This document shows, piece after piece, positions 1-7,086 of a stretch of 64,000 bases of DNA; positions within the stretch are counted from its first letter, which is position 1, and the number at the start of each line of letters is the position of its first letter. A program made the position numbers and the translations under genes. The stretch lies in IMG/VR virus record IMGVR_UViG_3300017613_002261; one strand, 5' to 3'. Under the pieces are notes generated by a model, which saw only the letters and a program-made list of their open reading frames with translations, was not told where the DNA came from and did no database searches. The DNA is from a virus.

Positions 1-116
1 ATTTTCTTTAAAGATTTATCCATTGATACTACATTTTCATATATTGCAGATATCAATAAGCCAAACACGATACTAATTAAAATACAAAATAACACTAAAA
101 TAACTGTATTACTCAT
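1..116 (-). CDS. small membrane protein, N-terminal part only (3' end lies beyond window start)
   Basis: ATG at 116-114 preceded by ttaaaggagaaaaa RBS. Reads MSNTVILVLFCILISIVFGLLISAIYENVV with one hydrophobic helix and stays open to position 1. Confidence 0.4.
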   Translation of the reverse strand, partial: MSNTVILVLFCILISIVFGLLISAIYENVVSMDKSLKK

Positions 117-303
117 TTTTTCTCCTTTAATTCGTTTATTTCGCTTTTCAATACTATAAGGTTTTCACACACTTTGCTTAAAGAAAATATCAGTCGAGTC
201 TTTTCATTCGTTCTGAAAATAACATCGTATAGTATAGCACCTAACATTCCAAAGATAATACTGAAAAAATATAAATAAGAATTAAAACGCCTGGATTATT
301 CAT
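113..303 (-). pseudogene. small single-TM protein interrupted by a frameshift near a homopolymer run
   Basis: ATG at 303 with AAGGAG RBS gives MNNPGVLILIYIFSVLSLEC then TAG (241-243). A second frame continues the hydrophobic helix (FSIIFGMLGAILYDVIF...KEKK) to TGA at 113-115. The span is 191 nt, not a multiple of 3. An A6 run sits at 264-269. Confidence 0.3.
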
Positions 304-583: not shown

Positions 584-943
584 CTATTCATTGCCTGAAG
601 CCTGTAATAATTCTGGATTCTTATAAATATTTCCTCTAACTTCTAAAAATAATATGTGATTAAATAAAAAATAGTGATGGTTATATTCTTCATTGTGTAT
701 TTCTATTGCTTTGCCTGCCTCATTAGTCATTGTGTATAAAACATTGTTTGATTTTAGTATATCACCGTCATAGATATCTTTTCCGTTTTTATCCTTTAAT
801 CTAGCATCTTTCATTAATATAGGCTTATTTCCATATTCTTTTAATAATTCATACTTCTTAAAAAATGATGATAATTTTTGCCCATCACTATAGGACATAA
901 CTTCATTGTATGGATCATAATATCTATACTTTGGTTCATCCAT
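584..943 (-). CDS. YopX-family phage protein
   Basis: Motifs DKNGKDIYDGDIL and C-terminal EVRGNIYKNPELL are typical of YopX. Confidence 0.6.
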   Translation of the reverse strand: MDEPKYRYYDPYNEVMSYSDGQKLSSFFKKYELLKEYGNKPILMKDARLKDKNGKDIYDGDILKSNNVLYTMTNEAGKAIEIHNEEYNHHYFLFNHILFLEVRGNIYKNPELLQASGNE

Positions 944-1409
944 TGTCTAACTCCTTATTTTCACTACCAGCAATTGGAACACCTTCGAGAGCGTCCTTAT
1001 AAACAGTCTTGAACTCTCTTTCAATTTTTCCTTGAGTGAAATTATCAGCTTCTATCACGTCGGTCAGCCCATTAAGAGTAACCATTTTAAGTATTTTCTT
1101 AATATTATGATCTAATCCGGCTGAACTGCCTTTATCCGCTGACTGAAGGACGTGAACCCACGCTGTGGCGGCTCTGGAGGCCTTCTCAGGTGACTTTTCT
1201 ATCAATTTAATAATCTTAGGCAAGGAAGGGAAATCGTCGCCGTATAGACGATAATGAGTGAATGCACGTTCTATATCTGGATAATTATATTTATACAAAA
1301 GATCCTCAAGCCAAGAAGTCATTAAGCCTTCAACTGATATTTGATTTCTACTAGCGAATAATCTCTTAATGTGGTTCGTTACTTTTTCTACTTTTTCTTT
1401 AGGTATCAT
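936..1409 (-). CDS. hypothetical protein
   Basis: 157-aa ORF in the co-directional array. Its start overlaps the stop of the upstream frame (TAATTATG). No motif recognised. Confidence 0.6.
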   Translation of the reverse strand: MIPKEKVEKVTNHIKRLFASRNQISVEGLMTSWLEDLLYKYNYPDIERAFTHYRLYGDDFPSLPKIIKLIEKSPEKASRAATAWVHVLQSADKGSSAGLDHNIKKILKMVTLNGLTDVIEADNFTQGKIEREFKTVYKDALEGVPIAGSENKELDNG

Positions 1410-1411
1410 AA

Positions 1412-1729
1412 TTAATCCTGAAATTTTGATAATATCATTTCTTGTTCACGATCCATTGATGACATATCACGTTTTTTATTGTTTCCAATAATTTCATCAT
1501 TCCAAGATTTATTATTAAGATATGTTTCAGGATTTTTCCTATACTGTTTATCAGGAGTAGAGTTCAAATAATTTGGCAATGTTTCAAATATTTTATCTAT
1601 ATCTTCTTTAGATAATTTAACGAACTTTTTATAACATTTTTCTTTAGATGCTTTTTTATCATACAGATCCCAAAAACGATTAAACGATTCTATGTCAGGC
1701 TGATCTATACTAACCTGATCTAATCTAAT
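1412..1729 (-). CDS. conserved phage protein (FNRFW..YDKK...NPETYLNNKSWNDE type), no canonical start codon
   Basis: 105-codon open frame with protein-like sequence (DQPDIESFNRFWDLYDKKASKEKCYKKFVKLSKEDIDKIFETLPNYLNSTPDKQYRKNPETYLNNKSWNDE). The first in-frame ATG/GTG/TTG comes too late, so the ORF track missed it. Confidence 0.45.
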   Translation of the reverse strand: MRLDQVSIDQPDIESFNRFWDLYDKKASKEKCYKKFVKLSKEDIDKIFETLPNYLNSTPDKQYRKNPETYLNNKSWNDEIIGNNKKRDMSSMDREQEMILSKFQD

Positions 1730-1790
1730 CTAATCTGATCTATACTAGACTGATCTAATCTAATCTGGGTTTCCATTTGGTTTCCATTTG
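1700..1790. repeat. iteron cluster: 4 x CTGATCTA-type units (15/20/15 nt spacing) plus 2 x 11-nt GTTTCCATTTG
   Basis: Read directly: ctgatctatactaac ctgatctaatctaatctaat ctgatctatactaga ctgatctaatctaat, then gtttccatttg gtttccatttg. Confidence 0.85.
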
Positions 1791-1868
1791 GTAAACCATC
1801 TTTTTTCCTAATTCTATATACGTTTTATTAGCGTCTAAGCCTAAATTTTTTAAATGTTCCTTATACAT
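1755..1868 (-). CDS. 37-aa ORF ending at a TAG inside the first iteron
   Basis: MYKEHLKNLGLDANKTYIELGKKMVYQMETKWKPRLD. It has an ATG but a weak RBS, and it is offset by +1 from the downstream open frame 1412-1729. Confidence 0.3.
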   Translation of the reverse strand: MYKEHLKNLGLDANKTYIELGKKMVYQMETKWKPRLD

Positions 1869-6568: not shown

Positions 6569-7063
6569 TTAACTCCTTTGAGGCCCTTCGTCGGACTTGA
6601 ACATAAAAAAATATTTACTTAAATCTGATTCTGAAATATTTAAATCACGGTCTGATATTCCGTTTAAATGATCTATTTCGTGCTGAGCAATTACTGCAGG
6701 TAATCCTTCAAGCTTAACTAAGCTAGATGTCTTATCACGAGGATCCTCATACTGTAATTGAATTTCTTTATATCTAAGAATAATAAATGACTCTCCTGGA
6801 TATGATAAGCAGCCTTCGCGAACTAACTCTTTATCATGAAATCCTACATAAGCAGGATTAAAGAAAATATCTGTAGGTAGTTTAAGAGATTTGAATTTAC
6901 GTGCAACAAAGAAACGATGGTTTAATCCGACCTGATTAGCACTTAATGCATACGCAGCCTTGTTCTTAATAAATTTTAAAAGTTGAATAGATGATTTAAA
7001 AGCTTCCTTATTGTCTGTAATCTTAGGTATCTTTGTATATAATAAAGCATTCGTGAAATTAAT
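6569..7063 (-). CDS. def: peptide deformylase (start codon unresolved)
   Basis: My own translation of a gap in the ORF track shows all three Def motifs: SANQVGL (motif 1-like), EGCLSYPG (motif 2), QHEIDHLNG (motif 3). No in-frame ATG/GTG/TTG; the frame opens after TAA at 7073-7075. Confidence 0.75.
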   Translation of the reverse strand: MNFTNALLYTKIPKITDNKEAFKSSIQLLKFIKNKAAYALSANQVGLNHRFFVARKFKSLKLPTDIFFNPAYVGFHDKELVREGCLSYPGESFIILRYKEIQLQYEDPRDKTSSLVKLEGLPAVIAQHEIDHLNGISDRDLNISESDLSKYFFMFKSDEGPQRS

Positions 7064-7086
7064 TCCCCTAAATTATCCTTTATAAG

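Follow-up and report, generated by a model that had tools for sequence, protein, structure and literature searches.

A start-less initiator module beside origin-like repeats in an uncultured phage: probable remnant of a lambda-O-like gene frameshifted by a surplus pentanucleotide

Introduction

Why should a conserved coding frame open without a start codon at the very place where a cluster of direct repeats lies? This question is raised by positions 1,412 to 1,868 of a 64,000-nucleotide (nt) stretch of phage DNA, here called the window, from the IMG/VR virus record IMGVR_UViG_3300017613_002261. The window corresponds to the minus strand over the final 64 kb of this record of 164,540 bp, and its first 22 bases lie outside the record. 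The coding strand of the locus is the minus strand of the window, and three of its frames are distinguished below: frame B, which holds an open reading frame (ORF) of 37 amino acids (aa); frame A, read from the ATG at 1776-1774; and frame C, the conserved frame of 105 codons.

An earlier note, drawn from the letters alone, had offered three explanations: that the repeats form a replication origin inside or next to an initiator gene, that the repeat block disrupted a gene, or that ribosomes bypass 37 nt between two matched GAT codons. Its description of the locus was largely accurate. The four repeat units are indeed spaced by 15, 20 and 15 nt, the 37-aa ORF (1868-1755) stops at a TAG within a repeat unit, the 105-codon frame runs from 1729 with no usable start, and the GAT codons at 1760-1758 and 1720-1718 lie where it placed them; the two tandem 11-mers, given there as 1768-1790, occupy 1769-1790. 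It missed the third frame, read from ATG 1776-1774, as well as the single 5-nt unit that separates frames A and C and the pentanucleotide period of the repeats. With a probability of roughly 60%, we read the locus as a frameshifted remnant of an initiator gene of the phrog_270 type with origin-like repeats that are native to it, that is, as a broken or mis-assembled copy that calls for no new mechanism.

Results

Identity of the conserved frame

Frame C matches phrog_270, a family annotated as 'replication initiation protein', with an expect value (E) of 1.7e-14 over profile positions 172-264 of 383. A tblastn search found 461 relatives in viral contigs, with identities of 44-69%. They share the motif F-x-x-F-W...Y-D/G-K-K ... 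PDKQYRKNP...W-N-D-E, of which all 10 invariant residues are retained here, and the leader of frame C aligns with the homologues without a gap from its first codon (ATT 1729-1727). The module occurs only once in the contig.

In the relatives, the domain is the C-terminal part of proteins of 165-350 aa, mostly 220-300 aa, and follows N-terminal domains of about 100-170 aa that are mutually unrelated (Lin1244_N/DUF4373, DUF6291, HTH_36 and others). Among cultured phages, the gene is carried by, for example, Vibrio phages from the Nahant collection and phi11-like Staphylococcus aureus phages, in which the protein is annotated as a replication initiation protein or replisome organizer. The gene downstream in most of the relative loci checked encodes an IstB/DnaC-like loader, a lambda P homologue or a Toprim-DnaB primase-helicase, and Pfam Phage_lambda_P is matched in relative L008. 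These comparisons identify frame C as the C-terminal module of lambda-O-like phage initiators (phrog_270). Three types of helicase delivery were observed behind the same module, namely lambda P (L008:3291-3989), an IstB/DnaC-like protein (L003:3273-4043) and a Toprim-DnaB fusion (L034:3279-4919); because these different genes follow it, the module is unlikely to depend on a particular type of loader.

No Pfam or NCBIfam model covers the module, the match to DUF7175 (E 0.045) being below threshold. An AlphaFold model of the domain, with a predicted local distance difference test score (pLDDT) of 74, consists of four helices. Foldseek found no match to this model in the PDB, and a wide fold search returned only weak helical matches with Z scores of at most 6.2, including the SPP1 G39P loader (Z 4.6) and DnaD-like domains (Z 3.2-4.2), which do not discriminate among folds. 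A shallow literature search found nothing on the module family or on the repeat signature described below.

The rest of an initiator region was not found around the module. No N-terminal DNA-binding domain was detected at the locus, where only the 37-aa ORF without a Pfam match lies upstream, and Lin1244_N was found nowhere in the contig. The next ORF upstream, of 146 aa, has no family match; a search of the ESM Atlas gave at most a weak zinc-ribbon likeness (template modelling score, TM, <0.5), and stop codons separate this ORF from the module. Directly downstream, an orphan 157-aa ORF stands in place of a helicase loader, and no IstB/DnaC-like gene was found in the contig, which is ~74% complete. 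The sole replicative-helicase candidate in the contig is a DnaB_C-type ORF of 470 aa outside the window (contig 63607-64386, E 1.7e-21), ~100 kb from the locus.

One surplus pentanucleotide separates frames A and C

Frame C opens immediately after the TAG at 1732-1730, and its first ATG, GTG or TTG is the TTG at 1579, deep in the conserved domain. Frame A reads the first repeat units in the register of the homologues: its first 30 nt encode QIRLD-QSSID and the next unit QIRLD again, and it has a coding score of 0.24 per codon, compared with about -1.6 to -1.8 in the other frames. Frame A then meets a TAG (1722-1720) because the ATTAG run at 1734-1720 has three units and not two, whereas the DNA shifted by 5 nt reads on in frame C through IRLD-QVSID to the conserved domain. 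The surplus unit shifts the frame, and it is for this reason that the conserved frame opens after a TAG without a start. The lone 20-nt spacing among the 15-nt spacings is this lesion: one surplus pentamer, with a shift of +2 between frames A and C.

The relatives define the register from which the window departs. A run of two ATTAG units places IRLD 12 residues before F-x-x-F-W, in frame with the upstream peptide, as in relatives L007, L010 and L082, and a 5-nt deletion made in silico brings the upstream frame of the window into the register of the homologues. In L007, L010 and Vibrio phage 2.095.A, the AGATN phasing is the same, and IRLD or IRSD stands exactly 12 residues before the domain in a gap-free protein alignment. 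As three pentamers equal five codons, a tract of 12 pentamers would give QIRLD-QSSID-QIRLD-QVSID in a single frame. Without the extra pentamer, frame A would encode ~122 aa, like the stand-alone members of the family, which have 91-120 aa and a Met 5-15 residues before the domain.

The first part of frame B also looks protein-coding. Its first 26 codons score 0.50 per codon (real genes, 0.41 +/- 0.18), a value reached by none of 166 off-frame windows open from an ATG. Coding-like sequence therefore follows ATG1868, but this codon has no Shine-Dalgarno sequence, and the best Shine-Dalgarno sequence of the region, AGGA at 1809-1806, lies 6 nt upstream of an internal ATG of frame B (1799-1797). 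Removal of one 11-mer, or a skip of 5 nt at 1757-1753, joins frame B to frame A. Each of the three segments scores as coding in its own frame, and the locus looks like one former ORF spread over three frames in the order B, A, C, with a step of +2 each time. In a phmmer search against 1.84 billion representatives, the 37-aa ORF had one marginal match, to an unrelated tandem-repeat protein, which we judged to be a chance match; the repeats of that protein are presumably S-layer-like.

Two ways of reading through the locus were tried and rejected. Reassignment of TAG fails, as readthrough of frame B meets a TGA and frame A, which stays open for ~50 more codons, leads into the wrong, non-conserved frame; stop usage in this phage is normal, with TAG terminating 35 of its 169 long ORFs. 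A hop of 11 nt over the duplicated 11-mer would have no slow or stop codon in the A site.

A third way, programmed or tolerated recoding, needs fuller discussion. Here, peptidyl-tRNA-Asp would sit on GAT with TAG in the A site, and the ribosome would hop +5 nt to the next GAT, or take the 37-nt bypass. From ATG1776 one hop (1725-1718) would suffice, and from ATG1868 or ATG1799 two identical hops (1760-1753 and 1725-1718) would be needed. The two sites are identical, matched GAT codons flank the in-frame TAG of the arriving frame, a 6-bp hairpin spans the take-off codon and the stop at site 1, and the downstream domain is perfectly intact. Moreover, synthetic constructs have yielded stop-hops of +5 and +6 (Weiss et al. 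1987, as cited in PMC5009743), and bypassing has experimental support in the terminase of phage Hau3, which carries two 10-nt inserts (PMC10732093). However, the matched codons come free with a tandem repeat, and a gap or frame break is found in none of 79 relatives, so that the arrangement shows no conservation. Site 2 has no such hairpin, and the 41-nt folds are no better than shuffled sequences (z -1.4 at site 1 and -1.25 at site 2). Known stop-hops are inefficient and have no known natural use (PMC5009743), and two other broken or start-less genes within 7 kb, described below, point to indels or errors and not to a dedicated signal. The +5 stop-hop is thus formally possible but unlikely, and we assign recoding of either kind a very low probability. 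The 37-nt bypass in particular is not supported: its matched GAT codons follow automatically from the repeat, none of the 79 relatives has the gap, the hairpin is weak (z -1.4), and the 5-nt account is simpler and restores the register.

The repeats are native to the gene family

We kept 80 relative loci, scored continuity of the ORF on 79 of them and computed repeat statistics on 60 after removal of near-duplicates. The ORF is continuous through the linker repeats, with no coding gap, in 79 of 79 relatives. Tandem repeats lie within 250 nt upstream of the domain in 57 of the 79, where ~11 would be expected. Over the same distance, a period of 10-12 nt or a multiple of it was found in 43 of 60 relatives, compared with 65 of 1141 control windows (5.7%; p about 5e-40), and a tract with a period of 5 or 6 nt in 26 of 60, compared with 20 of 1141 (1.8%; p about 9e-30). 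Across relatives L002-L081, these figures correspond to enrichments over the control windows of ~12-fold for the 11-nt period and ~25-fold for the 5/6-nt period. Where a locus has both types of repeat, the 11-mers usually come first (19 of 24 loci). Because the repeats lie in the continuous ORFs of most relatives, they belong to the gene family.

The number of 11-mer copies in the relatives ranges from 2 to 5.8, and their sequence varies between lineages. An 11-mer sequence is common only to loci with closely similar N-terminal domains, while similarity of the C-terminal domain is flat, although only 10 such pairs were available; this co-variation, as seen in the sequences, would fit a module of binding domain and iterons. 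The peptide encoded by the repeats differs from copy to copy because neither 11 nor 5 nt is divisible by three; the periodicity is therefore kept at the level of the DNA. Loci H9-H11, in which two annotations lie under the match, were considered as further split genes and rejected, as they represent a 4-nt overlap of neighbouring genes.

These results bear on the first two explanations of the earlier note and on the comparison of orthologues that it had recommended. In the orthologues, repeats are common and a single ORF runs through them, whereas the split seen in the window occurs in none of the 79 relatives. The gene is disrupted as suggested, but not by the cause suggested: the block is native to the family and no insertion has occurred, the lesion being the extra ATTAG and possibly an extra 11-mer. 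The origin gains from the comparison, in that the initiator genes of most relatives have the same layout; as a function, it is a prediction from sequence.

The stand-alone members are relevant to a further explanation, in which a working origin would lie between genes, the 37-aa ORF and the module would be separate genes, and the module would start at ATT 1729-1727 or at the ATA two codons before the F of FNRFW. Stand-alone proteins of 91-120 aa do exist, and the ATA is placed where their Met codons are; a peptide deformylase homologue in the window likewise has only ATT-type candidate starts, and the phage encodes its own DnaB-type helicase. Nevertheless, neither ATT1729 nor the ATA is preceded by a Shine-Dalgarno sequence, though most genes of this phage have one (mostly AGGA/GGAG). 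The leader codons before the ATA are colinear with the homologues and score as coding, which marks them as gene sequence and not spacer. In addition, no protein with a suitable DNA-binding domain is encoded nearby, and stand-alone relatives with short N-termini have no repeats. We therefore regard separate genes with an origin between them as improbable.

Repeat block of the window

The features of the locus are collected in Table 1. Outside the block, CTGATCTA has three further copies in the 64-kb window and forms no other cluster in the 164.5-kb contig, in which the 11-mer motif clusters at this locus alone. Tandem Repeats Finder (TRF) reported three periods at the block: 35 nt (x1.9), 5 nt (x11.4, at 1710-1766) and 11 nt (x2.3). 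AGAT recurs every 5 nt in the tract and is invariant in a DNA alignment with three relatives. Direct repeats at helical-turn spacing are thus present, as two 11-mers 11 nt apart, together with the four units at 15/20/15 nt. Beyond the block, the 80 nt at 1662-1583 have 82% A+T, compared with a genome mean of 66%; the same DNA encodes the lysine-rich start of the conserved domain.

Table 1. Positions of the reading frames, repeats, formal hop sites and adjoining ORFs in the window
Feature	Position	Strand	Details
Frame C, start-less conserved frame	1412-1729	-	105 codons + stop; core begins FNRFW at ~1684
Frame A, short ORF	1720-1776	-	18 codons to TAG 1722-1720; ATG 1776-1774 in second 11-mer, GGAAA 6 nt upstream
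Frame B, 37-aa ORF	1755-1868	-	stops at TAG 1757-1755 in first repeat unit
CTGATCTA-headed units, four (1700-1757)	starts 1700, 1715, 1735, 1750	+	spacing 15, 20, 15 nt
11-mer GTTTCCATTTG, two tandem copies	1769-1779, 1780-1790	+	11 nt apart
Tandem 11-mers, CAAATGGAAAC on coding strand	1769-1790	-	each holds ATG; placed where the family has its 11-nt-period iteron-like repeats
Pentanucleotide-period tract	1700-1766	-	13 AGATN-like units; from TRF and repeat families
(ATTAG)x3 run	1720-1734	-	one unit supernumerary; matching run of first repeat unit (1764-1755) has two units
Formal +5 stop-hop site 1	1753-1760	-	GAT 1760-1758, TAG 1757-1755, GAT 1755-1753, then CAG in frame A
Formal +5 stop-hop site 2	1718-1725	-	GAT 1725-1723, TAG 1722-1720, GAT 1720-1718, then CAG in frame C
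Upstream neighbour, 146-aa ORF	1936-2376	-
Downstream neighbour, 157-aa ORF	936-1409	-	orphan

Genomic setting and nearby anomalies

The record is linear, has 34% G+C and is estimated to be 74% complete. Its genes are almost confined to one strand, which has 169 ORFs of at least 80 aa compared with 15 on the other. Among the PHROG families matched within the window are a helicase, a DHH phosphoesterase, an exonuclease and a UvsX-like recombinase, and the majority of the genes are orphans. GC skew, which had been proposed as a check on the origin, is monotonic and without inflection; it is uninformative for this purpose because the contig is incomplete and its genes lie on one strand. A scan for promoters and terminators gave nothing relevant.

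The two neighbouring proteins are singletons among 5.8 billion clustered proteins, and each is recorded on two contigs, the longer of which has 223,005 bp. No relatives of either neighbouring gene were found in viral contigs, nor any of the 157-aa protein among the 5.8 billion proteins. The only match of the locus DNA among 50,697 phage records was to 84 nt of a Streptococcus phage initiator, and an exact 26-mer from the conserved domain was absent from metagenome and viral contigs.

Two further genes within 7 kb are anomalous. The peptide deformylase homologue (6569-7072, minus strand) lacks ATG, GTG and TTG over nearly its whole length; an ATT at 7063-7061 abuts AGGGGA, and an ATG at 7050-7048, which is out of frame, could serve only after a T run had changed by 1 nt. 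A small gene for a hydrophobic membrane protein (113-303, minus strand) has a good Shine-Dalgarno sequence at ATG303 and a stop after 20 codons, and its helix resumes in another frame over a T6 run (~269-264), likely a 1-nt indel or slippage site. In a genome-wide scan, the deformylase homologue and frame C were the only two convincing start-less conserved frames in 164.5 kb. The two anomalies favour the view that this region has collected indel errors or is under relaxed selection.

They also bring in the question of whether the contig records a slipped variant, through a sequencing or assembly artefact or as a minor allele, while the phage itself truly has (ATTAG)x2, possibly one 11-mer, and an intact gene. 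The lesion is a change of copy number in a short tandem repeat, the domain is undecayed, and the membrane-protein gene split at T6 and the start-less deformylase homologue add a pattern of indel errors within the same 7 kb. Against this, the 67-nt block fits within single short reads, and a de Bruijn assembler cannot invent a k-mer with three ATTAG units; with just two convincing start-less conserved frames in 164.5 kb, moreover, the assembly is not riddled with indels. We consider a slipped variant a real though clearly secondary possibility.

Discussion

The evidence suggests the following account of the locus. It would be the 3' half of a lambda-O-like initiator gene in a large (~220 kb) and otherwise unrelated phage. 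The family plan appears to be a variable N-terminal DNA-binding domain, a linker and the conserved C-terminal module, with linker DNA in which direct repeats of 11-nt period precede a tract of 5- or 6-nt period; together they may form an origin within the gene, with iterons one helical turn apart beside a repetitive tract that may serve for unwinding. Judged from their position and statistics, the linker repeats of the family are probable in-gene replication origins. The window retains two 11-mers, the 13-unit pentamer tract and an intact C-terminal module, and has neither the N-terminal DNA-binding domain nor a helicase-loader gene downstream. Repeat slippage would then have added the surplus ATTAG in 1734-1720, moving the conserved frame by +2 relative to the frame from ATG1776; if the start was ATG1868 or ATG1799, a second event is required, either an extra 11-mer or a second extra pentamer at 1764-1755. 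As assembled, the gene is not translatable from a normal start. Put most simply, the phage would have acquired part of a siphophage-type initiator gene, and this part now stands out of frame.

Because the domain keeps every invariant residue, the break must be recent, not real, or compensated. Within the account just given, we lean slightly towards a real and recent frameshift in a decaying or length-variable gene; an assembly error or a minor allele of an intact gene of ~122-147 aa is distinctly less probable, and the small remainder falls to compensation by low-level recoding. Several points weigh against the account as a whole. The C-terminal module is undecayed, as one would not expect of an old pseudogene, and an artefact, a very recent mutation or recoding could account for this. 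The start of the intact gene may have been ATG1868, which has no Shine-Dalgarno sequence, ATG1799, which has the best one, or ATG1776, which requires a single lesion. The block may have no activity in this phage, since the window has just two 11-mers and lacks an initiator DNA-binding domain, and the origin role of the repeats in the family is itself drawn from comparison. A more active role for the lesion can also be imagined, in which the pentamer tract would act as a switch in an origin-and-initiator module, turning it on and off by ATTAG slippage or setting a low level through a natural +5 stop-hop (GAT-TAG-AT to GAT). The stop-hop, if true, would be without natural precedent among bacteriophage replication genes; we think the whole idea very unlikely.

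With the locus read as a frameshifted initiator remnant, the puzzle of the window is resolved in an ordinary way, by normal linker repeats and a 5-nt slippage frameshift, real or artefactual. The wider finding is a C-terminal initiator module without a Pfam model that spans hundreds of phage contigs and is mostly preceded, within the ORF, by repeats with 11-nt and 5-nt periods. This repeat signature may provide a simple predictor of candidate in-gene origins in uncultured phages.

Among known systems, the closest in layout is that of phage lambda, in which the origin lies within the O gene as four iterons of 19 bp and gene P follows. By position and architecture, the module of the relatives appears to be lambda O/P-like: direct repeats resembling an origin lie within the initiator ORF, in the linker that joins an N-terminal DNA-binding domain to the C-terminal domain, and a helicase-loader gene is directly downstream, being a lambda P homologue in L008. 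The likeness is one of layout; the family has 11-nt repeats and then a short-period tract (a pentamer in the window) in contrast to the 19-bp iterons. The copy in the window differs further in being frameshifted and in having neither the N-terminal domain nor the loader.

Bacillus phage SPP1 offers a second parallel. Its oriL lies within gene 38 and combines direct repeats with an AT-rich unwinding element (PMC6316719). As in the present family, the direct repeats are inside the initiator gene (product G38P, a replisome organizer), and loader and helicase genes follow (PMC6316719); relatives of the domain in S. aureus phages are also annotated as replisome organizers or replication initiation proteins. 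For SPP1, binding and origin activity have been demonstrated, whereas in the present family they are predicted, and the two have no detectable sequence relationship.

The nearest relatives by sequence are the phrog_270/DUF4373 (Lin1244_N) proteins of Vibrio and other siphophages, which share the C-terminal module, at 46-69% identity, the AGATN-phased tract and IRLD in the same register. The window differs from them in that Lin1244_N or any other N-terminal domain is missing, the ORF is broken and the surrounding genome is that of a large, unrelated phage. The bypass in T4 gene 60 and the synthetic stop-hops resemble the locus in having matched take-off and landing codons that flank a TAG. Here, in contrast to T4 gene 60, the simplest gap is 5 nt and not 50, the take-off stem-loop is not significant, the arrangement is not conserved in relatives and no nascent-peptide signal is known. 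The copy in the window is thus a defective instance of a type of system that is already known.

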